Shown one piece after another: positions 1-13,266 of a DNA stretch of 13,482 bases. The DNA lies in IMG/VR virus record IMGVR_UViG_2541047885_000013, positions 1 through 13,482 of that record; one strand, given 5' to 3'. Origin of the DNA: a virus (Duplodnaviria; Heunggongvirae; Uroviricota; Caudoviricetes). The translations under genes were made by a program, and so were the position numbers. The first letter of the stretch is position 1. Each line of letters begins with the position of its first letter. The notes under the pieces are model-generated. The model made no database searches and was not told the DNA's origin. It was given only the letters and a program-made list of their open reading frames with translations.

Positions 1-1284
1 TTACTTCTTCGCCTCTGCAACCACTTTACTACCCACGCCGCGGTTATTGTATTCCCACATGCGGTTGTAGTTAGTGTCATTCAGATTGCGCTGTATTTCG
101 TCGTTATCATCTACGCTGCCGGTATTACCCGCAAACGGACGATTAGAGATCACCGCATCGGCCCACGGTTTAGCCGTGTTAAAACCTTCGTTGATGGCGC
201 TATCACGGATCACCACCTGACCGTTGGTATTGGCATCAACATCCAGCGAGCGGCCCAGTTGCGCCACACCATCACCGAAAGCATTGAAACGGCTGTTTAC
301 GGCGAGGAAACCGTAGTAAATGTTGGACAGCGTAGCCGGTGCAAACACATACGCTTCTTGCTGAGTACGTGAGTTCACCACGCGGAATTCGGTGTTATCG
401 AACACCACTGCGCCGCGACCAGAAACGATATCCACATCCCCTTCAATGTAGCTGTTGGTCACCAGCGTACGCGGCTGACGATTCGTTTCCAGACGGTTCT
501 GCACACCGCTGTTGGTGACAAAGAAGGTGTTCTGACGACCGAGAATGTTAACGTTGTTAATCTGTACCTGGTCACCATCAGTACGCAGTGCCACCGCCGG
601 ATGGTTACCTGCATCTACGCTATCGCCCAGCGTGTTTTCGATGGTCAGATTTTGCAGTTGCAGGCCATTGTTTTGTGACCAGAAGACCGCAGAGCAGAGA
701 ACACCGATACTGTCGCTGCGTTTGCTCTGGCAGCTATCGTACATATACCACGCTGGTTTACCTGGCATATATTTGCCGCGCGGGTTGACGTCGTGACGCC
801 AGTCGGCAGGGCTCATGCCACCATCAAGGGAAAGCCCAATCTTCACATCAATCGGTTTTTCACCTGTACCGTACAGAGTAATTCCACCCGGAGCGGCAGG
901 GACATATACCGTTCCCTGATACTCACCAGGCATCACGGCAATATACTGGCGCTTGTTGGTACGCTTGATAATTGCCGCATCTACCGCCGCCTGAATCGTG
1001 GTATGCGTTACACCTTGAGTGCCCGCCGGGCCGACAACAAAGTCAGGTTGCGCAGGCAGGGTAATCGGGGAAGGATTCCACGCTGCAGCACCTGGTGTCA
1101 GGGATGAAAAATAGTGTTGAGCATCGAAATTCTGCGCTTCTTTTGCCGACAGAATCGGGCGAGAAGAGGTACCAGGCGCGGTTTGATCAGAAGGACGTTG
1201 ATCGGGCGGGGTTGAGCTACAGGCGGTCAGCGTCACGCCAAAAGCCAATGCCAGCGCCAGACGGGAAACTGAAAATGTGTTCAC
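1..1284 (-). CDS. ybhC: YbhC, putative pectinesterase-family outer-membrane lipoprotein (host gene flanking attλ)
   Basis: Complete 427-aa ORF from the track; N-terminus has a lipoprotein signal with lipobox LTAC; sequence matches my recollection of E. coli YbhC, which lies next to attλ on the gal side. The window begins at its stop codon. Confidence 0.85.
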   Translation of the reverse strand: MNTFSVSRLALALAFGVTLTACSSTPPDQRPSDQTAPGTSSRPILSAKEAQNFDAQHYFSSLTPGAAAWNPSPITLPAQPDFVVGPAGTQGVTHTTIQAAVDAAIIKRTNKRQYIAVMPGEYQGTVYVPAAPGGITLYGTGEKPIDVKIGLSLDGGMSPADWRHDVNPRGKYMPGKPAWYMYDSCQSKRSDSIGVLCSAVFWSQNNGLQLQNLTIENTLGDSVDAGNHPAVALRTDGDQVQINNVNILGRQNTFFVTNSGVQNRLETNRQPRTLVTNSYIEGDVDIVSGRGAVVFDNTEFRVVNSRTQQEAYVFAPATLSNIYYGFLAVNSRFNAFGDGVAQLGRSLDVDANTNGQVVIRDSAINEGFNTAKPWADAVISNRPFAGNTGSVDDNDEIQRNLNDTNYNRMWEYNNRGVGSKVVAEAKK

Positions 1285-1330
1285 AGGTTGCTCCGGGCTA
1301 TGAAATAGAAAAATGAATCCGTTGAAGCCT

Positions 1331-1420
1331 GCTTTTTTATACTAAGTTGGCATTATAAAAAAGCATTTCTTATCAACTTGTTGCAACGAACAGGTCACTA
1401 TCAGTCAAAATAAAATCATT
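1331..1420. other. attL: attL of a lambda-type prophage: 15-bp core GCTTTTTTATACTAA (1331-1345) followed by the P' arm
   Basis: Core is read directly at 1331-1345. The following GTTGGCATTATAAAAAAGCATT..CTTATCAA..TTGTTGCAACGAACAGGTCACTATCAGTCAAAATAAAATCATTATTTG matches the remembered lambda attP P' arm (Int arm-type sites) with about 2 mismatches. Host sequence lies to the left and int immediately to the right. Confidence 0.85.
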
Positions 1421-2489
1421 ATTTGATTTCAATTTTGTCCCACTCCCTGCCTCTGTCATCACGATACTGTGATGCCATGGTGTCCGACTTATGCCCGAGA
1501 AGATGTTGAGCAAACTTATCGCTTATCTGCTTCTCATAGAGTCTTGCAGACAAACTGCGCAACTCGTGAAAGGTAGGCGGATCCCCTTCGAAGGAAAGAC
1601 CTGATGCTTTTCGTGCGCGCATAAAATACCTTGATACTGTGCCGGATGAAAGCGGTTCACGACGAGTAGATGCAATTATGGTTTCTCCGCCAAGAATCTC
1701 TTTGCATTTATCAAGTGTTTCCTTCATTGATATCCCGAGAGCATCAACATGCAATGTTGTAGGGATGGCAATTTTTACGCCTGTTTTGCTTTGCTCGACA
1801 TAAAGATATCCATCTACGATATCAGACCACTTCATTTCGCATAAATCCCCAACTCGCTGCCCGGTAACAACAGCCAGTTCCATTGCAAGTCTGAGCCAAC
1901 ATGGTGATGATTCTGCTGCTTGATAAATTTTCAGGTATTCGTCAGCCGTAAGTCTTGATCTCCTTACCTCTGATTTTGCTGCGCGAGTGGCAGCGACCGG
2001 GTTTGTTGTTATATGGCCTTCAGCCATTGCCTCTCGGAATGCATCGCTCAGTGTTGATCTGATTAACTTGGCTGACGCCGCCTTGCCCTCGTCTATGTAT
2101 CCATTGAGCATTGCCGCAATTTCTTTTGTGGTGATGTCTTCAAGTGGAGCATCAGGCAGACCCCTCCTTATTGCTTTAATTTTGCTCATGTAATTTATGA
2201 GTGTCTTCTGCTTGATTCCTCTGTTGACGAGGATTTTTTCGTAGCGATCAAGCCATGAATGTAACGTAACAGAATTATCACTGTTGATTCTCGCTGTCAG
2301 AGGCTTGTGTTTGTGTCCTGAAAATAACTCAATGTTGGCCTGTATAGCTTCAGTGATTGCTATCCTCCTGTCTCGGCCTAAACCAAACTCTTTACCCGTC
2401 CTTGGGTCCCTGTAGCAGTAATATCCATTGTTTCTTATATAAAGGTTAGGGGGTAAATCCCGGCGCTCATGACTTCGCCTTCTTCCCAT
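1419..2489 (-). CDS. int: Integrase (tyrosine recombinase), lambda Int type
   Basis: 356-aa translation MGRRRSHERRDLPPNLYIRNNGYYCYRDPRTGKEF...RDDRGREWDKIEIK matches lambda Int over its full length from memory; position next to attL and overlap with xis are as in lambda. Confidence 0.96.
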   Translation of the reverse strand: MGRRRSHERRDLPPNLYIRNNGYYCYRDPRTGKEFGLGRDRRIAITEAIQANIELFSGHKHKPLTARINSDNSVTLHSWLDRYEKILVNRGIKQKTLINYMSKIKAIRRGLPDAPLEDITTKEIAAMLNGYIDEGKAASAKLIRSTLSDAFREAMAEGHITTNPVAATRAAKSEVRRSRLTADEYLKIYQAAESSPCWLRLAMELAVVTGQRVGDLCEMKWSDIVDGYLYVEQSKTGVKIAIPTTLHVDALGISMKETLDKCKEILGGETIIASTRREPLSSGTVSRYFMRARKASGLSFEGDPPTFHELRSLSARLYEKQISDKFAQHLLGHKSDTMASQYRDDRGREWDKIEIK

Positions 2490-2685
2490 TTCTGATCCTC
2501 TTCAAAAGGCTACCTGTTACTGGTCGATTTAAGTCAACCTTTACCGCTGATTCGTGGAACAGATACTCTCTTCCATCCTTAACCGGAGGAGGGAATATCC
2601 TGCATTCGCGCACCCATCGACGAACTGTTTCAAGGCTTCTTGGGCGTCGCTGGCGTGCGTTCCACTCCTGAAGTGTCAAGTACAT
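2467..2685 (-). CDS. xis: Excisionase, lambda Xis type
   Basis: 72-aa translation MYLTLQEWNARQRRPRSLETVRRWVRECRIFPPPVKDGREYLFHESAVKVDL... matches lambda Xis; its 3' end overlaps the int start by 23 nt as in lambda. Confidence 0.95.
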   Translation of the reverse strand: MYLTLQEWNARQRRPRSLETVRRWVRECRIFPPPVKDGREYLFHESAVKVDLNRPVTGSLLKRIRNGKKAKS

Positions 2686-2790
2686 CGCAAAGTCTCCGCA
2701 ATTACACGCAAGAAAAGCCGCATTGATGCGGCAATGGTAGGTCTGGATATCTTGAGAAATGAACGGGCCTCATCGAGTGTGAGGCTGTGG

Positions 2791-3135
2791 TTAGTCCTTG
2801 CGTAACTCGCTAATTCTTCTGTAAGTCTCTGGTGCTTTGTTTCCGTGTATCTTCATTTCAGACTTCAACAGAGCAACGAGGGAATCCCATTCGGTGAGGA
2901 TGCCTTTGAATGCCGGAACGCGCTTTGCAACCTTGTCGAATGAATCTCTGATTTCTGGGATCTGCTCAACCAGTGCAACGCATCGTCGGAAATCGGCTGC
3001 GTCATGTGGAGCGCCGAAGTGATGACCATAGATATTCTTTTTCAGTCCACATGCGATTGAGGCAAGAGTTGCGCTACTGATGCCGACATCGCCAGTCGAT
3101 TGCCATTTCAAAACCTTCATAGCCAAATCTGACAT
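2791..3135 (-). CDS. Hypothetical protein, 114 aa (accessory gene next to xis)
   Basis: Track ORF 2791..3162; I place the start at the internal ATG (MSDLAMKVLKWQ...) because GGAG sits about 8 nt upstream and the longer N-terminal extension would run through a terminator hairpin. No family recognised. Confidence 0.55.
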   Translation of the reverse strand: MSDLAMKVLKWQSTGDVGISSATLASIACGLKKNIYGHHFGAPHDAADFRRCVALVEQIPEIRDSFDKVAKRVPAFKGILTEWDSLVALLKSEMKIHGNKAPETYRRISELRKD

Positions 3136-3146
3136 TTCTTGTCTCC

Positions 3147-3172
3147 AATAAAAAACCGCCATCAGGCGGTTT
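3147..3172 (-). terminator. Intrinsic terminator-like hairpin (AACCGCC-TGAT-GGCGGTT followed by TTTTTTATT on the minus strand)
   Basis: Read from the sequence: 7-bp GC-rich stem, 4-nt loop and a T-run on the minus strand. The stop codon of the 55-aa ORF lies in the loop, and the T-run runs into the RBS of the 114-aa gene. Confidence 0.5.
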
Positions 3173-3329
3173 GGTGTTCTTTCAGTTCTTCAATTCGAAT
3201 ATTGGTTACGTCTGCATGCGCTATCTGCGCCCATATCATCCAGTGGTTATAGCAGTCGTTGATGTCCTCTGCTTCGATAACCCTGTCGAATGACTCTCCA
3301 TTCCATTCACCTGTGACTCGGAAGTGCAT
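3162..3329 (-). CDS. Small hypothetical protein, 55 aa (MHFRVTGEWNGESFDRVIEAEDINDCYNHWMIWAQIAHADVTNIRIEELKEHQTA)
   Basis: Hand-translated ORF, below the track length cutoff; GGAG lies 8 nt upstream of the ATG (tatGGAGatgataaATG); bracketed by terminator-like hairpins upstream and downstream. In a different frame from the track's 61-aa ORF 3236..3421. Confidence 0.45.
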   Translation of the reverse strand: MHFRVTGEWNGESFDRVIEAEDINDCYNHWMIWAQIAHADVTNIRIEELKEHQTA

Positions 3330-3339
3330 TTATCATCTC

Positions 3340-3367
3340 CATAAAACAAAACTCGCCGTAGCGAGTT
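3340..3367 (-). terminator. Terminator-like hairpin (AACTCGC-tacg-GCGAGTT followed by TTTGTTTTAT on the minus strand)
   Basis: Inverted repeat read directly, about 65 nt downstream of the DUF551 gene stop, with a T-rich tail on the minus strand. Confidence 0.4.
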
Positions 3368-3429
3368 CAGATAAAAGAAATCCCCGCGAGTGCGAGGATT
3401 GTTATTCACCTTTGACGGCAAGTTGAAGG

Positions 3430-4350
3430 TTAGCCACGGTTAACCCCCTGCGGCGGTTCTGGCAGCGGCATCCAGTGGGTTACGTCATCCAAGATATTTC
3501 CTGATAAATATGTGAAAGCTCTATATTTTTTGTAATCAATTGGACTCATTACCCAGTTCCAATATGCTGCCACTATTTGACCTTGACTAAATGCCAGTAA
3601 CATTTTGGTGTCGTCCGGCATTCGCTCACTACAGCTTATCCAACCATCCGGAGTTACCGGAACTTGTGGAATGGCTGTCTGCTCTCGAACGTCATTAGGC
3701 GCTATAGGTTCTGCTGCCAACTGACTGGCATATTTGTTAATGGTAACGATAAGCTCTTGCTCAGCCTCATCCAGACAATCACCGATACCTCGCCTGTCAC
3801 CGTCAAAATCATCGAAATCGGCACGAATCCTGGCAACCTTCAGGATTGCGGACAACACCTCACTAGGAATTGCCGGATAGTTGGTTGACGTTTCCGCGAT
3901 TTCCCGAAAATTATTGGTTGACGAATTCTTGTTTTCCCGAAAGTTTCCGGACTGAAGCATGGCGGCGCGGCAGGCGTTCCATATTTCGGCAGCAATATCG
4001 CGCTCGCTATCGGTTAATTTGTACGTTGAAACATAGCCAGAGAGCATTTCTACGTTTTCCGGAGTTGCTTCTTCAGGCACTACCGGTGCTGGAGGGGCGG
4101 CGTAAATGCCCTCTATCACTAAATGTTTGCGCTCAAAATCATCTGGCTCTCGATGATATACGTAACTCCAATCACCAAGGTTATCATTGCGCCTGCAACG
4201 GAAACCTATCGGCTCTGCTTCCAGCGATGCCAGAGCAATTCGTGCCAGTTCTTCCGCTTCTTCTGCTGGCAGTACAACGTTGCTACCAGGTCCGTATGTT
4301 TCGCGCCACTGCCTGATTGTCAGCAGTCGCTCTTTGGTAATAGTGGTCAT
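3430..4350 (-). CDS. DUF551-like prophage protein, 306 aa
   Basis: Track ORF; the C-terminal segment ending ...VTHWMPLPEPP resembles the DUF551 domain common in enterobacterial prophage early regions; the N-terminal two thirds are unassigned. Confidence 0.65.
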   Translation of the reverse strand: MTTITKERLLTIRQWRETYGPGSNVVLPAEEAEELARIALASLEAEPIGFRCRRNDNLGDWSYVYHREPDDFERKHLVIEGIYAAPPAPVVPEEATPENVEMLSGYVSTYKLTDSERDIAAEIWNACRAAMLQSGNFRENKNSSTNNFREIAETSTNYPAIPSEVLSAILKVARIRADFDDFDGDRRGIGDCLDEAEQELIVTINKYASQLAAEPIAPNDVREQTAIPQVPVTPDGWISCSERMPDDTKMLLAFSQGQIVAAYWNWVMSPIDYKKYRAFTYLSGNILDDVTHWMPLPEPPQGVNRG

Positions 4351-4360
4351 GTGTTAGTCC

Positions 4361-4624
4361 TTATCCTGCTGTACTTTCAACTGATGAGGGGAATAAAATC
4401 TTTTCATCAAATCCGGCATTCATATCATGAACAGCAACACACCAATCCATTGACGAACGATTATCAAGAGCTTCCATGATTTCATCCATGCGGCGCAGGT
4501 CATACAGGTAAATGCTTTTATCGCCAATGGTGTAAAAACCAATTTTTTTCGGTGATGGGCAGCGATCAAGAACGTCCTGTAATTCGCTCAACCATGCTTG
4601 TTCTTTTTTTGTCAAAGTTGCCAT
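4361..4624 (-). CDS. Hypothetical protein, 87 aa
   Basis: Track ORF in the same orientation and tightly packed with its neighbours (2-nt gap to the next gene); no family recognised. Confidence 0.5.
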   Translation of the reverse strand: MATLTKKEQAWLSELQDVLDRCPSPKKIGFYTIGDKSIYLYDLRRMDEIMEALDNRSSMDWCVAVHDMNAGFDEKILFPSSVESTAG

Positions 4625-4625
4625 A

Positions 4626-5168
4626 TCACTCTCCTTTGATGCGAATGTCAGCGACGCGTAATGCGTGTTCTAGGTCAATCAGGTAAAGCCAACTGCCATT
4701 TTCTTTAGGTATCATGACTTGTCGCTCATCTGCATTTATCGGGTGTCCATATCGAAGGTCGTAGCGAGTCGGTAATTGAACTTCCCGCGCTTCCAGTTCA
4801 GCAATACGCTTGCACCCATCAGAGATAACTCCCTCGTAATACTCGCGCTGCTCGTTGAGTTTTGATTTTGCTGCTTCAAGCTCAACGCGCAGCTTCCCAA
4901 CCGTAAGCGCAATATCCTCGTTCTCCTGGTCGCGGCGTTTGATGTATTGCAGGTTTCTTTCCCGTTCATCCAACAATGCCAGCACGGTTTCTGGTCAGGT
5001 CAGAAATTTGAAGGCGTTGAGCGCATCAATATCCACACCGTAATCTTTAAGTTCCTGTTCACTTATCAGATCATCATCAACTGGCAACATTAACAGGCGT
5101 TCCATTGCCGGAATTGCACGTTCTGCCGCCTCACGCAGCGCCAGTGTGTCGATGTCGATGTTGCTCAT
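4626..5168 (-). pseudogene. ea22-like coiled-coil gene interrupted by an in-frame TGA (5' part 4995..5168, 3' part 4626..4985)
   Basis: Track ORFs 4995..5192 and 4626..4985 are in the same frame, separated by one TGA and three sense codons (...FKFLT*PET-V-LALLDERER...). The 5' part has a strong RBS (GAGGAGG) before MSNIDIDTL. The 3' part begins at a GTG with no recognisable RBS. The combined length of about 180 aa is close to lambda Ea22 (182 aa, from memory). Confidence 0.45.
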
Positions 5169-5398
5169 TGTGCCTCCTCGATTTCGTCCCATTCCACCCA
5201 GGCATTCTCTCCATCAGCATCGATTTCACCTTTGTGACCGCATTTGGAACAAACGGCCTCATCACCCGCCCACAAAGAATCTTTGGTTACCGACCATCCT
5301 GTTACCTTGGCTTTGCCGTGCTGGCACTTAGGGCAATCATCAAGCCATTCGACTTCGACCATTGAAGGACCAAATCCATGTTCAGTTCGGATGCTCAT
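5165..5398 (-). CDS. Small zinc-ribbon protein, about 77 aa (two CxxC pairs: CPKC and CSKC)
   Basis: Track ORF 5165..5431; I prefer the start at MSIRTEHG because its ATG overlaps the stop of the upstream gene as ATGA. Its own stop overlaps the start of the ea22-like gene in the same way. Confidence 0.55.
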   Translation of the reverse strand: MSIRTEHGFGPSMVEVEWLDDCPKCQHGKAKVTGWSVTKDSLWAGDEAVCSKCGHKGEIDADGENAWVEWDEIEEAQ

Positions 5399-5943
5399 GA
5401 CTGAACTCCTTTGCGAATCTGTTCCGCCCATTCTTCAAGGGATTTCTCCGCATATTCACCGGACAGGCCATCAATCGGATGCGGTTCATTAGCCAACTCT
5501 TCTTTCGCTGACAAAATCATGCGTGTAACGTCGAAAACTTCACGCAAAGACTTATTGATAAATCCGTGATTGAACGCAGCAGCAAGACGGCTTGCGGTGT
5601 AGTTAATCCCCTCGTTGCGTGCCTCCGCACGTATTTCAGCCAGGAAAGCGTCGGTGTCTGTGGTTTCGATATCGTTAATTTCAGGAAGAATCTCTTCCCA
5701 TGTAGCGATATCGCCATTCAAATGCCATCCGGCAATTCCACTGGAGTTATCCGCAACACTGCGAACAGCTTCAATAGTTTCATGCATTGCCGCATTCTCA
5801 GCCGCCAGAGCAGCATATTTATCTTCAAGTTCACCGAATTTACGCACCAGATATTCAGCGTTTGTTTCGTTAACCTTTAAATCATTTGGGATGCATTTAC
5901 CTTTCAGAAAACCATCCATCTCAATTAGTGACATTTGTTTCAT
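5395..5943 (-). CDS. Hypothetical protein, 182 aa
   Basis: Track ORF; GGAG lies about 9 nt upstream of the ATG; coupled to flanking genes by ATGA overlaps. No family confidently recognised. Confidence 0.6.
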
Positions 5944-6104
5944 TTTTTCCCACTCCGCAACATCGCATTCAGATATTTGTTTTGATTCACTGATGGAAAA
6001 GAATTTCTTTTAAGCAATTCTTCTCTCGATGGCATTGGCTTTACGCGTTGGCGAATAATCATTTCTGCCGGAAGAATGCCGGGGTTGTATGCAAGTCCTC
6101 TCAT
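5940..6104 (-). CDS. Small hypothetical protein, 54 aa ([54 protein letters not shown])
   Basis: Hand-translated, below the track cutoff; its start overlaps the stop of the 93-aa gene (ATGA) and its stop overlaps the start of the 182-aa gene (ATGA). It fills an otherwise non-coding 160-nt gap. Confidence 0.4.
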
Positions 6105-6382
6105 GATTTACTCTCCATGAACTGGTCAACAGCCATGCTAAGTGATACACCTAAAGTCTCGATATGCTGCTGAATATCCTGTAGCGTCTGCGCCTGAGAT
6201 AACAGGATTTCACGGTTGCATAACTCTTTGACCAGATGCTCAAACTTGCTGTAATAACCGATACGGCTTAGTGTTTCTTTCCCTGCATTCTCGCCTTCTT
6301 TGATAATTCCTCTTTCGCTAAGAATCAGATCGTGTTTGGTTCCGGTAATAACGTATTTGCCGAGGTCAATGTTTAGCTTCAT
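6101..6382 (-). CDS. Hypothetical protein, 93 aa
   Basis: Track ORF in operon orientation; no family recognised. Confidence 0.55.
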
Positions 6383-6398
6383 TGTTAATTACTCCATG

Positions 6399-6713
6399 TT
6401 AATTTATTCGTATGCCTGCTCTTCCTTCATCGAGTTTTTTTAGCTTGTATCGCATAGCTCTCACTGAATAAATTGAGCGGCAGGTTGCAATTGCTATTTC
6501 TTCTGCGGAGAACTTACCGAAAAGTGATACTTCGGCTCTTGTCCAGCGTCTTCCACGAAGTCGGCTAACAATGTCAGCGCCAATCCTTGTTGCTTTCGCC
6601 ATTACTGCTTTTTCAGTCCTTTCCAGTTTTTCAGCGATAACTTCAACTGGCATTGTCGCCGCTACTTCGCGCAAGAAATCGACTTCCCATTTCTCCCATG
6701 GAGTCTTTTTCAT
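6399..6713 (-). CDS. Hypothetical protein, 104 aa, with two tandem HTH-like motifs
   Basis: Track ORF. Two internally similar segments (W-x3-E-V..(E/V)EIA...R(T/S)...V.A...) match the general pattern of sigma-region-4/LuxR-type helix-turn-helix motifs; this is a pattern judgement, not a search hit. Confidence 0.55.
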   Translation of the reverse strand: MKKTPWEKWEVDFLREVAATMPVEVIAEKLERTEKAVMAKATRIGADIVSRLRGRRWTRAEVSLFGKFSAEEIAIATCRSIYSVRAMRYKLKKLDEGRAGIRIN

Positions 6714-6724
6714 AGGCGATACCG

Positions 6725-7207
6725 TTATTTGATAAGAAGTGAAGGTTTCCCAACCTTGAGTTGAGCGCCTGGGATATTTATTCCTGCTTTTAGTTGGTGC
6801 TTGATTGCCAGTTTGTCGGCTTTAATTGTCGTTTCGAACTCAACGTATTCAGGAGGAAGGGCGCTTGAGTCGATGATTTCTACAATTTCTGACGGTTTGC
6901 GGATTGTTACCTGGTGAATACCTGCTCGAATATTTTTCTTGCCAACCATTTCAAGCGATGACGCTATATATGATTTGATGCTGTCAATCTTATTTTGAAT
7001 TACTGCGGCTCGCTCATTCAGTGACTTTGCCTCTTCCTTGAGGCGTTCAGCATAACCAGATTCATTTTTAATGACGGAAAGAAGTTGCTCTATTTTATCG
7101 GTAAATTCTCCTTCCATGCCTTCTATTGTGTCAGCAATCATCTCTGGTTCTAAATCTGAATCCATCAATTTTGCGTATTCATTGGCAATTTCATATAGTT
7201 TGCTCAC
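6725..7207 (-). CDS. Coiled-coil protein resembling the siphovirus Gp157 family, often found beside phage recombinases
   Basis: Track ORF 6725..7213 begins at a TTG; I prefer the GTG start two codons in (GGAGG about 6 nt upstream). The family assignment is from recollection and the genomic context directly downstream of recT. Confidence 0.4.
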   Translation of the reverse strand: MSKLYEIANEYAKLMDSDLEPEMIADTIEGMEGEFTDKIEQLLSVIKNESGYAERLKEEAKSLNERAAVIQNKIDSIKSYIASSLEMVGKKNIRAGIHQVTIRKPSEIVEIIDSSALPPEYVEFETTIKADKLAIKHQLKAGINIPGAQLKVGKPSLLIK

Positions 7208-8102
7208 TGGCAACCTCCAGTTTCGCTTTGCATTCTGCGTAAATGGCTTGTACGTTCTGCTGCAATTTCATTCCAGATGTCAGGCGATATGCTTCTGCAA
7301 AATATCGCTTCAAATCATCCATGTTTTCAGCCTGAGCCATTTCATCACAAAGAAGTTGTGCTTTATCCGTTATTTCCTGCTGGCGTTTCCGTTCATCTTC
7401 GCGGATATCTTCCTCTGATTTGTGCGGCATAACTGGTTCAGTCCACACACCTTCTTCTTCGTTTAGTACGTGAATAGCACTATCAAGACGTGATGCCTTA
7501 GGCCAATACTTGCTTGCACGCTTTACGACCGTCTTTCGCGCCATCTCATTCCAGTGATTTACCCATGGTCCTTTATCGCTGAATGCCGCCTTGCTTGTTT
7601 TCCTTACAGCCTCAATTTCAGCCAGACTCATCTCTTCCGTTAGATAATCACCTGCTGGCGTCTTAACTGTGCAGTAAACGCCAACGATATCACCACGATC
7701 ACCGAAGGCGTTGTATTTATGGGTTGGTGCTTTATCAAGCCCGTTTGACTCATAGGTATCGTTAGCATGAACAAGTTTTGCCTGACCCCATGAGATAACA
7801 CCAGACTCCATTGCAATATGGAGCAATCCCATATAACTGATATCAAGGCACACCATGCCGTCGCGAGGAACCAGATAAGCCAGTTTGCTGGCCGGGTTTA
7901 AGGTGATGCCGATCGCCGCAACATTGATGATGGCGTTCTGTGCGCTGGTTGGATTTGCCAGTGCCGTTTTAGCCAGGTAATCATTTTTCTGGAAATACTG
8001 AATTGCAAACTGGCTTTCCTTAGCCCATGTCACCGTCTGTTCAGTCAATGCTCCGCAGAATAACTGCTCTTGCTGTTTAACGAATTCAACGATATTGCTC
8101 AT
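7191..8102 (-). CDS. recT: RecT-family single-strand annealing recombinase
   Basis: 303-aa translation contains ...GPWVNHWNEMARKTVVKRASKYWP..., closely paralleling Rac RecT ...GPWVTHWEEMAKKTAIRRLFKYLP..., plus the RecT-like segment NVAAIGITLNP. Confidence 0.8.
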   Translation of the reverse strand: MSNIVEFVKQQEQLFCGALTEQTVTWAKESQFAIQYFQKNDYLAKTALANPTSAQNAIINVAAIGITLNPASKLAYLVPRDGMVCLDISYMGLLHIAMESGVISWGQAKLVHANDTYESNGLDKAPTHKYNAFGDRGDIVGVYCTVKTPAGDYLTEEMSLAEIEAVRKTSKAAFSDKGPWVNHWNEMARKTVVKRASKYWPKASRLDSAIHVLNEEEGVWTEPVMPHKSEEDIREDERKRQQEITDKAQLLCDEMAQAENMDDLKRYFAEAYRLTSGMKLQQNVQAIYAECKAKLEVASEQTI

Positions 8103-8410
8103 GCAGCTTCTCCATAAATATGTCTGCGTTTGAATATTGCGAAGGCATATTCAGCCTTAACTCTTTCGGTTATTGCATCCCAGAACCATTCAGCGGCTTT
8201 TTCCTGATAGTTACAGTCATCATCTTCCAGCCAGTCGATAGCGTCCTTAGTGTGTTCATCTGGTTTATATGAGCGAAGCATTTCGCTTATTGGGTCGCAA
8301 CGTTTGCAGAGGCGATCAACTTCACTGTTGATTCGTTCGTAATCTTCATCAGTAAAACTTGCGATTATTTGCGATATTTCACGCTTATCATTCAGAGTCA
8401 GAATCATCAT
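8099..8410 (-). CDS. Hypothetical protein, 103 aa
   Basis: Track ORF; AGGAG lies 4 nt upstream of the ATG; its stop overlaps the recT start (ATGA). Confidence 0.55.
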   Translation of the reverse strand: MMILTLNDKREISQIIASFTDEDYERINSEVDRLCKRCDPISEMLRSYKPDEHTKDAIDWLEDDDCNYQEKAAEWFWDAITERVKAEYAFAIFKRRHIYGEAA

Positions 8411-8495
8411 CTTTCTCCTGTTCTTTGTGCTGATTGAGCATTTTGTTCATCTGACGAATGAATTCTTCGTCTGACCAGTTATCTGTAAAACTCAT
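8388..8495 (-). CDS. Small acidic hypothetical protein, 35 aa (MSFTDNWSDEEFIRQMNKMLNQHKEQEKDDDSDSE)
   Basis: Hand-translated; its start overlaps the stop of the cIII-like gene (ATGA); its 3' end overlaps the start of the 103-aa gene in another frame. Weak RBS. Confidence 0.3.
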   Translation of the reverse strand: MSFTDNWSDEEFIRQMNKMLNQHKEQEKDDDSDSE

Positions 8496-8662
8496 GGACG
8501 GCCTTGTTGTTTCAAAATATCCCAAAGCTTTTCGAGCAAACTTTTCATTCTTGGTTGTTTAAAGTCTGCTCCGGTTAAAATATTTTTTCGTGAATGCTGT
8601 ACCGATAAAATCGGGTTGAAAGGGCGAACCGATGCCGCCCCTGCAATAGCGAACTGTTGCAT
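8492..8662 (-). CDS. cIII: cIII-like protein, 56 aa (putative FtsH inhibitor)
   Basis: Internal start of track ORF 8492..8767, with AGGAG 5 nt upstream of the ATG. The translation MQQFAIAG...KSLLEKLWDILKQQGRP resembles lambda CIII (MQYAIAGW...ESLLERITRKLRDGWKRLIDILNQPGVP, from memory), and it lies in the expected position in the pL operon. Confidence 0.5.
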   Translation of the reverse strand: MQQFAIAGAASVRPFNPILSVQHSRKNILTGADFKQPRMKSLLEKLWDILKQQGRP

Positions 8663-8866
8663 AGGATGCTCCTTCTGTTTGATTGCATAACGAAAACGCC
8701 TCAAGTGAAGCGTTATTGGTATGCATATAAAAAAGCCCTCACATAGGAGGGCAAAGAAGATTTCCAATAATCAGAACAAGTCGGCTCCTGTTTAGTTACG
8801 AGCGACATTGCTCCGTGTATTCACTCGTTGGAATGAATACACAGAGCAGTGTTTATTCTGTTTTTT

Positions 8867-8896
8867 ATGGCAAAAATAAAAGCTGCCATCAGGCAG
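8867..8896 (-). terminator. Intrinsic terminator-like hairpin (GCTGCC-TGAT-GGCAGC followed by TTTTATTTTT on the minus strand), in a tL1-like position
   Basis: Read from the sequence; it lies in the pL operon downstream of N and the small acidic ORF and upstream of cIII, a position analogous to lambda tL1. Confidence 0.5.
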
Positions 8897-8969
8897 CCTT
8901 GTTGTTCTGTTTACCAAGTTCTCTGGAAATCATTGCCGTCGTTCGTATTGTCCACACCATTGATTTTTA

Positions 8970-9056
8970 TCAATAGTCGTAGTCATACGGATAGTCCTGG
9001 TATTGTTCCATCACATCCTGCGGATGCTCTTCGAACTCTTCAAATTCTTCTTCCAT
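8970..9056 (-). CDS. Very acidic 28-aa peptide (MEEEFEEFEEHPQDVMEQYQDYPYDYDY)
   Basis: Hand-translated; strong RBS (GAGGTGA) 4 nt upstream of the ATG; first ORF downstream of N. The track's plus-strand ORF 8849..9088 is antisense to it. Confidence 0.4.
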   Translation of the reverse strand: MEEEFEEFEEHPQDVMEQYQDYPYDYDY

Positions 9057-9064
9057 ATATCACC

Positions 9065-9391
9065 TCAAATAAGTGGTTTGCTGCCTAATTTCATTTTCTG
9101 GCGACCAACACAAGTCACACCCATTTCACTGCGTGGCTTGCTGTACCATGTGCGCTGATTCTTGCGCTCAATACGTTGCAGGTTGCTTTCAATCTGTTCG
9201 TGGTATTCAGCCAGCACTGTAAGGTCTATCGGATTCAGTGCGCTTTCTACTCGTGATTTCGGTTTGCGATTCAGCGAGAGAATTGGGCGGTTAACTGGTT
9301 TTGCGCTTACCCCAACCAACAGGGGATTTGCTGCTTTCCATTGAGCCTGTTTCTCTGCGCGACGTTCGCGGCGGCGTGTTTGTGCATCCAT
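9065..9391 (-). CDS. N: Antitermination protein N (lambda type)
   Basis: 108-aa translation MDAQTRRRERRAEKQAQWKAANPLLVGVSAKPVNRPILSLNRKPKSRVESALNPIDLTVLAEYH... matches lambda N (arginine-rich boxB-binding motif at the N-terminus); the extreme C-terminus differs. Confidence 0.93.
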   Translation of the reverse strand: MDAQTRRRERRAEKQAQWKAANPLLVGVSAKPVNRPILSLNRKPKSRVESALNPIDLTVLAEYHEQIESNLQRIERKNQRTWYSKPRSEMGVTCVGRQKMKLGSKPLI

Positions 9392-9589
9392 CTGGATTCT
9401 CCTGTCAGTTAGCTTTGGTGATTGGATGGCCGGCGCTGAACCCCGGCTTACTGGTTAGAGCGCCCGCACTACCAGTGACGCTGTCTTGAGGCGCAGATTG
9501 GTTACTGCTTGCCATGAGCGCTGTTTATACATTGGTCGAGCATCAGCCTGCTCATTCATCCAATCCCAAAGCCTTCTGCTTTGAAAGCT

Positions 9590-9622
9590 GCCCTTCTTCA
9601 GGGCTTAATTTTTAAGAGCATC
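9590..9622 (-). promoter_or_regulatory. nutL: nutL (boxA CGCTCTTAA-like, boxB GCCCTGAAGAAGGGC on the minus strand)
   Basis: The reverse complement of 9590-9622 reads GATGCTCTTAAAAATTAAGCCCTGAAGAAGGGC, matching lambda nutL boxA and boxB, in the leader between pL and N. Confidence 0.85.
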
Positions 9623-9652
9623 ACCTTCATGGTGGTTAGTGCGTCCTGCTGA

Positions 9653-9688
9653 TGGCTAAATAGTACGATTTGTACTTTATCGAGTCAA
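9653..9688 (-). promoter_or_regulatory. pL promoter (-35 TTGACT, 17-bp spacer, -10 TACTAT, predicted +1 near 9653) with an overlapping operator AAAGTACAAATCGTACTATT
   Basis: Minus-strand sequence TTGACT-N17-TACTAT-TTAGCC-ATCAGCAGGACGCAC has the same architecture as lambda pL and its transcript start (ATCAGCAGG), but the operator sequence is different from lambda's. Confidence 0.7.
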
Positions 9689-9750
9689 TACAAAATGTTC
9701 TAAATATGATTAGTTTTTTATAACGCTTTGTATTTAATGGGTTTATGTTT

Positions 9751-9783
9751 TGGAAAAAGAAAACCCGACGCTAAGGTCGGGTT
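9751..9783 (-). terminator. Intrinsic terminator immediately downstream of cI (AACCCGAC-loop-GTCGGGTT followed by TTCTTTTTCC on the minus strand)
   Basis: 8-bp GC-rich stem and T-run read directly, about 30 nt after the cI stop. Confidence 0.6.
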
Positions 9784-9813
9784 ATTGTTGTGTGTTTTAG
9801 AGTTGTGAGGCTG

Positions 9814-10473
9814 TTAACTAAATGTCTCTTCAGGCCACTGGCTGGCGATAACTTTCCCTACTACGGAACAGCTATCATTGCATGGAATCATTGGATATTG
9901 CGGGTTTAGTGGCTGTAGGAACACCTGACCGCTATCCCTGATCAGTTTCTTGAAGGTAAACTCGTCACCACCAAGTCTGGCTATGCAGAAATCACCTGGC
10001 TCAACAGCCTGCTCAGGGTCAACGAGAATTAACATCCCGTCAGGAAAGCTTGGCTTGGATCCTGTTGGCGCGGTCATGGAATTACCTTCAACTTCAAGCC
10101 AGAACGCACAATCACTGGCTTTTTTGGTTGTGCTGACCCATCTCTCCGCATCACCTTTGGTAAAGGTTCTAAGCTCAGGCGAGAACATCCCGGCCTGAAC
10201 ATGAGAAAAAACAGGGTACTCATATTGTTTTTTAACGGGGGCAGATGAGTATTCGCCAACAGGTGAAAATGTACCGTCGTGGTTGAATGAGACGTTATCA
10301 ATACCAAGGTATTTAAACACCACACCAATCTCGTCAAGAGATGGATGACGAGATCCGCGCAACCAGTGACCAATTCCACCCTGCGTCATACCAAGCTCTT
10401 CAGCTAACTTCTCTTGAGTTATGCCGAGCTCTTTCATTCTGGATCTAGCCAGTTCATACCATTTCATTTTCAT
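9814..10473 (-). CDS. cI: cI-type prophage repressor: lambda-like C-terminal S24 autopeptidase/dimerisation domain joined to a non-lambda N-terminal HTH domain
   Basis: Track ORF 9814..10515. From ...[39 protein letters not shown]... to the end it matches the lambda CI C-terminal domain almost residue for residue (from memory). The N-terminal about 90 aa ([40 protein letters not shown]...) is an XRE-type HTH unlike lambda's. Start chosen at MKMKW (10473); 10467 or 10515 are possible. Confidence 0.85.
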
Positions 10474-10529
10474 ACCCTTATTATTACGCTCTGTACTAAA
10501 ACCATCCATGCACAAGATGTATTTTTTGT

Positions 10530-10558
10530 TTGCATTCTAAAAGTACATATCGTATTAT
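10530..10558 (+). promoter_or_regulatory. pR promoter (-35 TTGCAT, 17-bp spacer, -10 TATTAT) with an overlapping operator AAAGTACATATCGTATTATT
   Basis: Read directly in the cI-cro intergenic region. The 20-bp operator-like sequence over the -10 is a near copy (2 mismatches) of the one overlapping the pL -10; a third related site (TAGTACAGAGCGTAATAAT, minus strand, about 10479-10498) sits just upstream of the cI start. Confidence 0.55.
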
Positions 10559-10584
10559 TGTTTCATGGTTACTATGGAGGGCAT

Positions 10585-10800
10585 ATGAGCAACCTACGAA
10601 AATATCGAGAGTCACTGAATATCTCTCAAACAACACTTGCTAAGGCAGTTGGATGCACACAGGGAGCTATCGGACATTGGGAATCTGGTCGTCGCTTCCC
10701 AGACCTTAAAACATGCCGTGCTCTTGTTGAGTGCCTAAACAAGTTAGGCGCAAAAGTCAGTCTTGATGACGTGTTCCCGCCGGAACACAAAGCCGCTTAA
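10585..10800 (+). CDS. cro: Cro-like repressor, 71 aa, XRE-type HTH
   Basis: Internal ATG of track ORF 10414..10800, with GGAGGG 4 nt upstream. Its HTH (ISQTTLAKAVGCTQGAIGHWESG) is similar to the cI N-terminal HTH. It is divergent from cI and followed by nutR. Confidence 0.8.
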   Translation: MSNLRKYRESLNISQTTLAKAVGCTQGAIGHWESGRRFPDLKTCRALVECLNKLGAKVSLDDVFPPEHKAA

Positions 10801-10809
10801 GACATTCTA

Positions 10810-10840
10810 GCTCTTACACATCACAGCCCTGAAAAAGGGC
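10810..10840 (+). promoter_or_regulatory. nutR: nutR (boxA GCTCTTACACA, boxB GCCCTGAAAAAGGGC)
   Basis: Sequence AGCTCTTACACATCACAGCCCTGAAAAAGGGC matches lambda nutR boxA and boxB, between cro and cII. Confidence 0.85.
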
Positions 10841-10916
10841 ATTACCAGAAACAAATCTCTATGGTTTTGCGTTTCTTTGCGAAGCCAACTCTATCTAATC
10901 ATTAAGGAAATTATCT

Positions 10917-11198
10917 ATGGGTACTATTGCAACTAAAAGCAAGAAAGCGGCTCGCATCGAGTCGGCCTTGCTGAACAAACTGGCACTGATGGGGCAGAAG
11001 ACATTCGCTCGAGCAATGGGGGTTCCTGAATATCAGGTAAGCCGATGGAAGAATGGTTTCTTCTCGCAGGTAAGCATGATGCTTGCTGTTCTGGAATACG
11101 GAATCGAAGACGATGAAATGGCTGAATTGACTAAGCGGCTTGCCGATTACCTGACAAAAGAAAAAGCCCCGAAGAACGGCGAATTCTTCGAGGCATGA
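10917..11198 (+). CDS. cII: cII-like transcriptional activator, 93 aa
   Basis: Translation ...[33 protein letters not shown]...[18 protein letters not shown]... parallels lambda CII ([33 protein letters not shown]...LLAVLEWGVVDDDMARL); position after cro and nutR. Confidence 0.75.
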
Positions 11199-11232
11199 TG
11201 TAGAAAGACTGGATCAATCCACAGGAGTAATT

Positions 11233-11379
11233 ATGACAAAACAACTCAGTCCTTACCAGGACAAAATTCACAAACACATACTACGTGATCGCTTCCTGTC
11301 CAGCTTCAAGCAGCCTGGTCGATTCCGGGCTGAGTTGGAAAAAGTGAAGCTGATGCAGAAGGAGAAAGGTCATGAGTAA
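11233..11379 (+). CDS. Small hypothetical protein, 48 aa, between cII and O
   Basis: Hand-translated ([48 protein letters not shown]); AGGAG lies 5 nt upstream of the ATG; its 3' end overlaps the O start by 8 nt. Confidence 0.35.
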
Positions 11380-12232
11380 TCTTGCAACCGTAACACATTT
11401 AAGGCCTTCACAACGGCCTGTGGAGCGTCGTGTGGCAGAAGTTGAAGATGGTTATACCCGTCTTGCAAATGCCCTGTATGAAGAGCTTATCGGCGCAGAT
11501 TTAACGAAAAATCAGAGCAAGGTTGCCCACGCCATATGCCGTAAAACATACGGCTACGGTAAAAAGATGGATCGCATCTCTGATAGTCAGTTAGCTCAAA
11601 TTACCAGGCTGCCAAGACAGAAGGTAAACAAGGCCAAGAATGAGCTTATCGCGATGAAGGTTATCCTTCGCGAAGGCCAGCAAATCGGGCCTAACAAGAA
11701 CATCGAGGAATGGCAAATCGAAGGGTGTCACTACTCTGGTGATAATGTCACTGCATTGGTGACAAAAAGTGTCACCAAAACGGTGACAGCGCTGTCACCA
11801 AAACAGGGACACACAAAAGAAACTATTACAAAAGAAAAAAGAAATAATAAAAACACTATGTCCGAAAGTGTTCGGACGGAGTGTGAAAAATCACCTGACC
11901 GTCACGAAGAAACCGACAAGGCATTCGAGGAAATATTCTGGTGTGCAGGCATGCGGAAAGCCGGGAAGAAAAACGCAGCTTCGGCATTCAGAACACAGTT
12001 CAGGGAATGGCGTAAAACTACCAGGGGTACGGCAAGCGAGTTTGCCACGATGCTGGCAGAAGACATCGCATGCAGGAATGGTAAGCAGTTCGGATTCGAC
12101 AGGTTGTTACCATCGAGCTACCTGAACGGTCAACGCTGGAACGACGAGAAGCCAGAAACTATTCAACCACAATCCAAACCATCATCCGCAATCACCGTAT
12201 CGAAAACTGGCTACGTGTTTTTCGACAGGTGA
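11372..12232 (+). CDS. O: Replication initiator, lambda O-like N-terminal iteron-binding domain
   Basis: The N-terminal region ([56 protein letters not shown]...GPNKNIEEW) parallels lambda O (DGYARLSNMLLEAYSGADLTKRQFKVLLAILRKTYGWNKPMDRITDSQLSEITKLP...GPNKNISEW); iterons lie inside the gene. The C-terminal half is not recognisably lambda-like. Confidence 0.8.
11726..11860. repeat. Putative replication origin inside the O gene: GTCAC/GTGAC iterons followed by an AT-rich tract
   Basis: Read directly: TGTCAC (11726), TGTCAC (11745), GGTGACA (11758), TGTCACC (11770), GGTGACA (11782), TGTCACC (11793), then an A/T-rich stretch (about 11815-11860). This organisation is analogous to the lambda origin. 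Confidence 0.6.
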
Positions 12233-12235
12233 ACC

Positions 12236-12343
12236 ATGAAATCAAAAATCAAATCGCTACTGGTCGCTGGTTATAACCACGGTTGGTTAAGTATTTCGTT
12301 TGTCGATTTCTGGTTTAAAAATCTCAATCTGAGGGAATCATGA
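12236..12343 (+). CDS. Small hydrophobic peptide, 35 aa (MKSKIKSLLVAGYNHGWLSISFVDFWFKNLNLRES)
   Basis: Hand-translated; AGGTGA lies just upstream of the ATG; its stop overlaps the start of the primase-like gene (ATGA). Confidence 0.35.
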   Translation: MKSKIKSLLVAGYNHGWLSISFVDFWFKNLNLRES

Positions 12344-13266
12344 CGCCAAGTGAACTCAGCGACCTGCTTTGGGCGCAGGTTGACAGGGTGGCTCCGCACC
12401 TGTTGCCAAACGGCAAGAAAGAGGGGCATGAGTGGGTTGCCGGTAACGTCAACGGTGACAAGGGAAACAGCCTTAAGGTCAACCTTAGCGGCAAGAAAAA
12501 ATGGGCTGATTTCGCTGAGGGAGACGGCGGTGACATGCTTGATTTGTGGATGGCGTGTCGTGGAATTAACCTGCATCAGGCTATGCAGGAAGCGAAAGCC
12601 TTTCTCGGAATCAAGGATGACGATCACCATTTCGATGCCAAACGTGAGAAGAAATTCTCCAGACCTGATCGCAAGAAAATCGCCCGCTATGTTACCAGAA
12701 CAGAATCCCATCTTGAGTACCTGCAATCGCGTGGCATATCGCCAGAAGTCGTAAAGCGCTACGAGGTTGTAAGCGGCAAGGTGTGGAATGGAGAGCGGGA
12801 ACTGGATGCTCTGGTGATTCCGTACAAACGCGATGGTGAGTTGTTGCAGGTCAAGCGAATCAGCACTGAGCGCCCGGACGGGAAGAAAGTCATTATGGCA
12901 GAAGGTGATTGCGAACCTTGTCTGTTCGGATGGCAGGCTCTGGACGCTGGCGTGAGGGCGGTTGTACTTTGCGAAGGCGAAATTGATTGTATGAGCTATG
13001 CGCAATACGGCATCTCGGCGTTATCCGTGCCGTTTGGTGGAGGGAAAGGCGCTAAGCAACAGTGGATTGAGTTTGAGTACCACAACCTCGACAGGTTTGA
13101 GGAAATATTCATCTCGATGGACGTTGATGATGTTGGTCGTGAAGCCGCAAGGGAAATCGCAAGCCGACTCGGTGAACATCGTTGCCGTCTTGTTACTCTG
13201 CCGTACAAAGACATTAACGAATGCCTGATGAATGGTGTTACCGAGGATGAAATCTGGCAGTACTGA
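12340..13266 (+). CDS. Toprim-domain primase-like replication protein, probably truncated at its 3' end by an IS insertion
   Basis: 308-aa track ORF with Toprim-like motifs (VVLCEGEIDCMSYAQYG and ISMDVDDVGREA). Its stop codon TGA (13264-13266) is the first three bases of the IS terminal repeat. Confidence 0.65.
   Translation: MTPSELSDLLWAQVDRVAPHLLPNGKKEGHEWVAGNVNGDKGNSLKVNLSGKKKWADFAEGDGGDMLDLWMACRGINLHQAMQEAKAFLGIKDDDHHFDAKREKKFSRPDRKKIARYVTRTESHLEYLQSRGISPEVVKRYEVVSGKVWNGERELDALVIPYKRDGELLQVKRISTERPDGKKVIMAEGDCEPCLFGWQALDAGVRAVVLCEGEIDCMSYAQYGISALSVPFGGGKGAKQQWIEFEYHNLDRFEEIFISMDVDDVGREAAREIASRLGEHRCRLVTLPYKDINECLMNGVTEDEIWQY

Follow-up and report, generated by a model that had tools for sequence, protein, structure and literature searches.

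The principles of modular evolution in lambdoid phages have been established for decades. More recently, they have been quantified within a published framework of lambdoid mosaicism and of the co-transfer of interdependent genes (PMC9836094). Here we describe a stretch of 13,482 nucleotides (the window throughout) from the IMG/VR virus record IMGVR_UViG_2541047885_000013, in whose Escherichia coli host (assembly GCA_000460275.1, scaffold KE701649.1) a lambda-type integrase would have inserted a prophage at attλ, beside ybhC. There is little doubt that positions 1331-13263 are the integration, early-left, immunity and replication part, i.e., the left half, of a lambdoid prophage at this site. 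Its architecture is textbook lambdoid mosaicism, real but ordinary.

The closest described elements each resemble a part of this prophage. With phage lambda (NC_001416) it shares the att core and P' arm, Int, Xis, orf55, orf28, residues 1-86 of N, boxB at both nut sites, the pL leader, the C-terminal domain of cI, the pI box and the gene order. However, lambda exo, bet, gam, kil, cIII, ea8.5, ea10, sieB, rexA, rexB, cro, P and ren have no match in the window (by tblastn in the case of kil, rexA and rexB), cII and the O-like protein, the latter in its N-terminal part only, are just 49% identical to their lambda counterparts, and the operators and iterons are different. The best overall matches, covering 51-62% of the window at ~97.8% identity, are phage 720R6 (ON470605, Lederbergvirus) and a prophage at the same site in E. 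coli M21816. These have the lambda-type int-xis, the cassette with a 114-amino acid (aa) open reading frame (ORF), orf55, the immunity region (99.7%), the O-like and primase-helicase genes and the ybhC-side integration, but differ in their own ea region, an Erf/Abc2 recombination module, a sieB-like gene, a cII of another type (66-72% nucleotide identity) and a primase-helicase gene that is free of the insertion sequence (IS) found here. HK140 (NC_019710) shares DUF2737, DUF5405, the Abc1/D5-like, MuGam-like and RecT genes, a 102-aa ORF, the cIII-like gene and ral, but its ral is intact, sieB is present, the integrase, N and immunity are others, and replication is of the lambda O/P type. Finally, mEp043 (NC_019706) shares nutR, cII, DUF2740, the O-like gene with its iterons and the toprim primase-helicase, as well as the 114-aa cassette and a lambda-type N, but has an SfX-like integrase at thrW, another immunity and an Erf/Abc2 recombination module.

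Mosaic structure and relatives of the prophage

In a sensitive local blastn comparison of the window with lambda positions 27000-42000, 3,125 of the 11,933 bases between 1331 and 13263 (26%, about a quarter) align at at least 85% identity, in approximately nine separate blocks (Table 1). Outside these blocks and the weak alignments (66-78%), no nucleotide similarity to lambda is detectable by blastn. A preliminary description of this DNA, made from the sequence alone, had claimed that lambda-like and non-lambda segments alternate across the whole span and had proposed a lambda alignment; given that identity turned out to be neither uniformly high nor uniformly low, the mosaic observation is confirmed. 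The ends assigned to the span also proved exact, 1331 being the first base of the att core and 13263 directly preceding the terminal repeat of IS629, TGAACCGCCCC. The parts that had been called lambda-type hold up as well: Int (98.3% aa identity), Xis (98.6%), residues 1-86 of N, the identical boxB elements of nutL and nutR, the pL leader (96.7%) and the C-terminal domain of cI (135 of 137 aa). The same is true of the modules that had been called foreign to lambda, i.e., immunity (the cI N-terminal domain, cro and operators), recombination (RecT and a Gp157/MuGam-like protein) and replication (an O-like gene with different iterons and a T7 gp4-like primase-helicase). Lambda-like patches beyond those named earlier are orf55, an Ea22 fragment, the ral remnants with orf28 and the cIII leader; the IS629 break in the replication module and the inactivation of ral and of the Ea22-like gene are likewise additional to the earlier description.

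According to the ORF map and the family assignments, the gene order is lambdoid (int-xis-(ea genes)-recombination-cIII-N-cI-cro-cII-replication-nin-Q-lysis), with the genes from int through cI on the minus strand and cro, cII, DUF2740, the O-like gene, the primase-helicase fragment and IS629 on the plus strand. The source scaffold continues downstream with nin genes, a Q antiterminator, holin, lysozyme and Rz, and the sequence analysed from it reaches into the late genes, to 10 kb beyond the window. The 8.7 kb past the IS (helicase half, nin, Q and lysis genes) are closest to the P22-like phages Huey, Sf6, Sf101 and HF4s, with no lambda among the best matches listed.

The 98% identity of att, int and xis to lambda, along with the lambda-type N, nut and cI C-terminal domain, could be taken to mean that the element is essentially lambda (Lambdavirus) with a few swapped modules, comparable to laboratory hybrids such as λimm434. 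We reject this possibility as highly improbable. Membership in Lambdavirus rests on nucleotide similarity over most of the genome, against the aligned quarter reported above; the best whole-window matches, 720R6 and 683R2, are classed as Lederbergvirus; and the region downstream of the IS is P22-like. Because of the low lambda-like share and the affinity of the downstream nin, Q and lysis genes, the prophage looks like a P22-like relative with a lambda integration system, and not like a Lambdavirus.

The non-lambda parts are 95-100% identical to described lambdoid or P22-like phages and prophages, and eleven fetched loci jointly cover all of positions 1-13263 at at least 90% identity, except 5661-5785. 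None of the 50,697 phage records and none of the 5,426 complete E. coli genomes searched contains at least 80% of the window in one place. To judge from these comparisons, the combination is new in those collections; the parts are common and none of them is new sequence. About 15 joints fall within 12 kb. Many of these coincide with gene boundaries or with short sequences that several lineages have in common (e.g., 8446-8495, 9054-9081, 9413-9420, 9565-9573 and 10792-10808). The window also illustrates joints below the level of the gene, namely in the cI linker (10224), near codon 86 of N, inside the 182-aa ORF and in the DUF551 gene (~3609-3661), where the N-terminal part is separated from the DUF551 domain. 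We infer, from established knowledge of lambdoid phages, a history in which the ~15 blocks of the prophage would have been swapped by recombination with other lambdoid and P22-like phages. Co-infecting phages and resident prophages would recombine where they share short conserved stretches, and rare illegitimate joins together with selection for working combinations would complete the mosaic.

A similar picture could arise as an assembly artefact, if short reads of co-resident lambdoid prophages were joined via shared stretches of 100-300 bp. Indeed, the draft scaffold has an N gap at the window end, E. coli genomes hold several related prophages (a median of 4 matching places per genome), and several junctions lie in short stretches common to many phages. 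Nevertheless, the chance of such a chimera appears very slight. The window has no gap up to 13482 and agrees with its source scaffold at 100% identity over 2340-13482; a Logan assembly built independently matches the window, again at 100%, over 5036-13288, a range that includes ~ten junctions and the IS joint. Other genomes are collinear over other joints: M21816 over 2-3408, an IMG/VR locus over 295-3477, CMZE063 and E200086 over ~3609-5140, HK140 over 5824-8954, 683R2 over 9054-9420, 720R6 over 9565-10800 and mEp043 over 10792-13263. Given that the independent contig and the collinear genomes span the joints, an assembly chimera is rejected, and nothing was found that contradicts the mosaic reading. 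The window thus provides a clean worked example of lambdoid modular evolution, although it matters little beyond bookkeeping.

Table 1. Features, lambda-like blocks and closest donors along the window (aa, amino acids; nt, nucleotide)
Feature	Positions	Strand	Evidence or identity
ybhC, host gene, gal-side flank of attλ	1-1284	-	100% identical to E. coli ybhC; Pectinesterase domain
attL	1331-1418		core GCTTTTTTATACTAA (1331-1345, 15 bp) and lambda P' arm
Lambda-type integrase, 356 aa	1419-2489	-	Arm-DNA-bind_1 and Phage_integrase domains
Lambda-type xis	2467-2685 (block 2467-2716)	-	98.6% aa identity to lambda Xis
Moron-like cassette, 429 bp	2717-3145	-	without lambda counterpart
114-aa ORF, HK022 p30-like	2791-3135	-	uncharacterised
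orf55 (lambdap35) block	3146-3405; ORF 3162-3329	-	95.0% nt, 90.9% protein identity to lambda
ea region, small non-lambda genes	3430-6382	-	families from Pfam and PHROG
DUF551 protein	3430-4350	-	
87-aa ORF	4361-4624	-	
Ea22-like gene	4626-5192	-	in-frame TGA
77/88-aa ORF	5165-5431	-	EaE-like
182-aa ORF	5395-5943	-	EaE/YfdS-like
DUF2737	5940-6104	-	
DUF5405	6101-6382	-	
HK140-type recombination module	6399-8410	-	no exonuclease
104-aa ORF	6399-6713	-	Abc1/D5-like
Gp157/MuGam-like gene	6725-7213	-	Pfam Sipho_Gp157; PHROG Mu Gam-like
RecT	7191-8102	-	Pfam RecT
103-aa ORF	8099-8410	-	
cIII-like gene, 56 aa	8492-8662	-	phrog_550 (CIII), E 4e-22
Lambda-like stretch, ral pseudogene and intact orf28	8724-9081	-	
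orf28	8973-9056	-	100% identical to lambda
N antiterminator, 108 aa	9065-9391	-	Pfam N36, E 1.5e-26
nutL	9590-9620	-	boxB GCCCTGAAGAAGGGC (9590-9604), lambda-identical; boxA TGCTCTTA (9613-9620)
pL region, non-lambda	9655-9813	-	candidate pL TTGACT-17-TACTAT (9688-9660)
Candidate oL operators	9662-9676, 9687-9701		AGTACN5GTACT
Terminator hairpin after cI	9762-9783		scan-based
cI repressor	9814-10467	-	Pfam HTH_3 and Peptidase_S24; start uncertain (217 aa from 10467 or 231 aa from 10509)
oR/pR	10483-10800	+	candidate pR TTTGCA-18-TATTAT (10529-10558)
Candidate oR operators	10483-10497, 10542-10556		
Non-lambda cro, 71 aa	10585-10800	+	HTH_3
nutR	10809-10840	+	boxA AGCTCTTA (10809-10816); boxB GCCCTGAAAAAGGGC (10826-10840), lambda-identical
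cII, 93 aa, mEp043/P22 C1-like	10917-11198	+	Pfam Phage_CII; 49% to lambda cII
pRE cII box	10929-10942	-	TTGCTTTTAGTTGC
oop-like terminator	11166-11194	-	strong hairpin antisense to cII 3' end
DUF2740 ORF	11233-11379	+	Pfam
O-like initiator	11372-12232	+	Pfam Phage_rep_O, TIGR01610
Primase-helicase fragment, T7 gp4-like, N-terminal 308 aa	12340-13263	+	Pfam Toprim_2
IS629 left end	13264-13482	+	99.1% to annotated IS629; HTH_Tnp_1 OrfA
Lambda-like: attL core and P' arm, int, xis	1331-2716		98.1%
Lambda-like: orf55	3146-3405		95.0%
Lambda-like: Ea22 fragment	4791-4985		91.3%
Lambda-like: cIII leader	8639-8724		78%
Lambda-like: ea10-ral spacer, ral pieces and orf28, first alignment	8724-8954		93.6%
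Lambda-like: the same stretch, second alignment	8931-9081		94.0% (8724-9081 overall ~94%)
Lambda-like: N	9090-9420		94.0%
Lambda-like: nutL and pL leader	9565-9654		96.7%
Lambda-like: cI C-terminal domain	9820-10224		93.8%
Weak lambda alignment: cII region	10810-11129		66%
Lambda-like: short patch after cII	11208-11240		91% (33 bp)
Donor: 720R6, E. coli M21816	1419-3408		97.5%
Donor: mEp043	2736-3406		97.3%
Donor: ZX5	3447-5660 (in pieces)		96-100%
Donor: E. coli CMZE063, E200086, N25	~3609-5140		97-99%
Donor: HK140	5824-8954		97.2%, one collinear block
Donor: 683R2	9054-9420		98.4%
Donor: Gally, E. coli 22KM0354	9413-9573		98.1%
Donor: 720R6, Dewey, 683R2, Louie	9640-10808		99.4-99.7%
Donor: mEp043	10792-13263		98.8%

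Interacting partners within the mosaic

Genes and sites that interact are inherited as sets or remain compatible, which is why the mosaic would be expected to work. At the left end, ybhC abuts the lambda att core and the lambda P' arm, which identifies attL of a prophage at attλ, the location that had been proposed. All elements of a BOP' junction are present (ybhC flank, 15-bp core, lambda P' arm and lambda-type int), and in direct comparison attL has 3 mismatches to lambda attP over 88 bases. The ybhC-int arrangement is also found in E. coli M21816 and 22KM0354. The first lambda block stops at 2716, the end of the high-scoring segment pair in blastn, and includes the pI cII box TTGCGTGTAATTGC at 2698-2711 (TTGC-N6-TTGC).

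N is 90.7% identical to lambda N overall; its residues 1-86, which contain the arginine-rich motif, are identical save K64E; its last 22 residues have diverged. At each boxA, only the first base departs from that of lambda (CGCTCTTA), and from boxA to boxB nutR has 31 matches to lambda among 34 positions. As expected of a lambdoid phage, the prophage encodes an N-type antiterminator with nut sites downstream of pL and pR. Given that non-lambda DNA lies between them, the N motif, nutL and nutR are three separate lambda-type patches, and the window shows the arginine-rich motif and the two boxB elements kept together in non-lambda surroundings; the motif of N would in this way stay matched to lambda boxB at both nut sites. 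The N leader contains, at 9413-9573, a 145-bp non-lambda stretch between the lambda-type nutL and the lambda-type N start, and this stretch is 98% identical to Gally and E. coli 22KM0354.

In the immunity region, cI combines a non-lambda HTH_3 N-terminal domain, unrelated to that of lambda, with the lambda-type S24 C-terminal domain, in which the Ala-Gly cleavage site is preserved. The junction at 10224 corresponds approximately to lambda residue 102, in the linker. The site for RecA-dependent self-cleavage would thus be kept with the C-terminal domain, and the cI DNA-binding domain, cro and the operators would move as a single block. Divergent cI and cro genes flank oR, and a second set of operators, candidates as those at oR, is located at pL; the repressor has a LexA-like self-cleaving domain. 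The motif AGTACN5GTACT has 8 matches versus 2.7 expected, four of them in oL and oR, two at each. Only pL and pR were used among the promoter calls, being backed by position and operator motifs. Beyond its four nearly identical relatives (Table 1), the immunity block is 93% identical to the Shiga toxin (Stx) phages Nil2, Stx2-II and 2851. Given that the hybrid cI lies within a block shared at >99% with four phages, its joint is older and not specific to this prophage.

The cII segment is 96-99.5% identical to mEp043, and for this non-lambda cII, TTGC-N6-TTGC boxes would still be available at both pRE and pI, the latter derived from lambda. The hairpin at 11166-11194 adjoins the 33-bp lambda-like patch, and its position fits an oop-like antisense RNA; no RNA family was identified when the whole window was compared with Rfam (E <=0.1). 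The DUF2740/O-like segment matches mEp043 at 98.8% identity. Within the O-like gene lie four 19-20-bp iterons (TGTCACN..GGTGACA, 11726-11811), followed by an A-rich stretch. The O-like initiator would carry its own iterons and be linked to its own T7 gp4-like primase-helicase in place of lambda P.

Lesions and state of the prophage

The genes int, xis, N, cI, cro, cII and O are intact, and three lesions are present: the IS629 insertion at 13263/13264, a 103-bp deletion in ral and a TGA codon in the Ea22-like gene. In relatives, the primase-helicase is an uninterrupted protein of 626 aa; here, the stop codon of the fragment comes from the IS. The PDB sequence matches of the fragment are T7 gp4 and end at approximately gp4 residue 248; the insertion is located just after the Toprim domain, roughly where the primase and helicase domains meet in T7 gp4-like proteins. 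Behind the IS, the source scaffold continues with the helicase half, for which 350 aa are called, with DnaB_C/AAA_25 matches. The IS is assigned to IS629 (IS3 family) by its left end TGAACCGCCCCGGG, the same terminal repeat as in IS629, its right end CCCGGGGCGGTTCA, a 4-bp GTAC target duplication on both sides, 99.1% identity to the copies in Stx phages and the HTH_Tnp_1 OrfA. It continues in 10927-12235 of the fetched locus of the source scaffold, and its middle is, here, an N-filled assembly gap, at which the window ends.

The primase/IS629 junction has no exact match in GTDB representative genomes; the source assembly was identified by an exact look-up of the truncated primase protein. A Logan contig from an unrelated run (SRR35601302) is 98% identical over 11848-13263, encodes the same 308-aa fragment and stops exactly at 13263, which suggests that a diverged lineage carries this IS, or some other repeat, at that position. 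Separately, the part of IS629 within the window (219 bases) has a 100% identical counterpart in the phage 21 record AF017626.1, annotated there under 'int'; this record seems to contain an unannotated IS629 copy.

A three-way alignment with lambda and HK140 places a clean deletion within ral, at 8954/8955, with a short ATTG(C/T)CC repeat at its borders; lambda Ral matches the window in two pieces only. The sieB gene is missing altogether beside ral/orf28. In the Ea22-like gene, the nonsense codon at 4995-4997 (minus strand) replaces a GGA (Gly) present in the two closest relatives fetched and inactivates the gene.

In addition to the block structure, donors, conserved motifs and lesions that are directly observed, we consider the prophage most likely to be replication-defective because IS629 splits the primase-helicase gene. 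Taken together, this is most likely an immune, possibly excisable, replication-defective prophage. Several points weigh against the overall interpretation. The defect is deduced solely from the split gene, and the helicase half behind the IS may still be expressed; the sequence analysed includes neither the virion genes nor an attR (POB'), which would be expected next to ybhB/bio; and the DNA comes from a draft scaffold built from short reads. Promoters, operators and the start codon of cI were guessed from consensus sequences, and promoter-like sites are not enriched (13 found vs. 18 expected in shuffles).

T7 makes a helicase-only form of gp4, and hexamer formation in the T7 gp4 family depends on the linker. 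The first of these properties raises the possibility that the prophage is still viable and inducible, with IS629 in the primase-helicase linker and the two halves expressed separately to support replication. This would be in line with the position of the insertion directly behind the Toprim domain (corresponding to T7 gp4 residue 248), with the ORF for the helicase half behind the IS and with the intact regulatory and integration genes and O. Furthermore, the contig of the second, 2% divergent sample ends at the same junction, implying that the allele persists. However, neither a start codon nor a promoter has been demonstrated for the helicase half, the requirement for the linker speaks against function of the separated halves, the two further inactivating lesions in the same 12 kb fit a decaying prophage, and IS629 insertions are common in prophages. 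We therefore regard continued viability as unlikely and retain the replication-defective prophage as the preferred interpretation. For annotation, the element is best recorded as a prophage related to P22-like phages, with a lambda integration system and an immunity region shared with 720R6, 683R2, Louie and Dewey, that is probably replication-defective through IS629.

Accessory genes and the 429-bp cassette

The combination of RecT and a MuGam-like protein with no nuclease corresponds to the recombination module type described as 'SAP-4 with MuGam, no nuclease' (PMC12315714). The adjacent cIII-like gene is also present in HK140 and 720R6. The ea region is itself a patchwork, with segments 95-100% identical to ZX5, E. 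coli CMZE063 and E200086, 720R6 and HK140. Chi sites are uninformative (0 in the window vs. 0.3 expected).

The preliminary description had further suggested that accessory cargo would sit at the module junctions. This is only weakly borne out, by one cassette, the 429 bp at 2717-3145; no other junction has an insertion of gene size when compared with lambda. PADLOC, NCBIfam and Pfam scans of the accessory ORFs identified no defence or other informative family beyond DUFs, the rexAB and sieB positions, where lambda carries its cargo, are empty, and a defence island at the junctions is rejected. The cassette is a clean insertion bounded by hairpins. Lambda reads CAAGAAAAAACCGCCATCAGGCGG at the insertion point, and the cassette interrupts the A run ahead of that hairpin, with a hairpin of its own, GCCGCATTGATGCGGC, followed by a T run, at 2717-2732. 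A promoter scan found no sigma-70-like promoter for it.

The 114-aa ORF of the cassette is present in 325 IMG/VR contigs at 97-100% aa identity and adjoins the lambda-type xis in 33 of 63 loci and orf55 in 27 of 80, suggesting that the cassette assorts as its own unit. The encoded protein has an all-helical predicted fold (predicted local distance difference test, pLDDT, 93) without a counterpart among the solved structures in PDB, and PDB sequence searches with the 114-, 103- and 104-aa ORFs gave nothing significant. Its structural relatives are found only among uncharacterised phage proteins, including those of unrelated phages, e.g., the actinobacterial Clavibacter phage CN1A. We tentatively raise the possibility, albeit a rather doubtful one, that it is an uncharacterised lysogeny-associated or counter-defence factor and not a mere early-left filler gene. 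Many database proteins are chimeras in which 30-60% of the 114-aa ORF is fused to pieces of Erf, Kil, Ea22 or a pyrophosphohydrolase, indicating that recombination often breaks inside this ORF.

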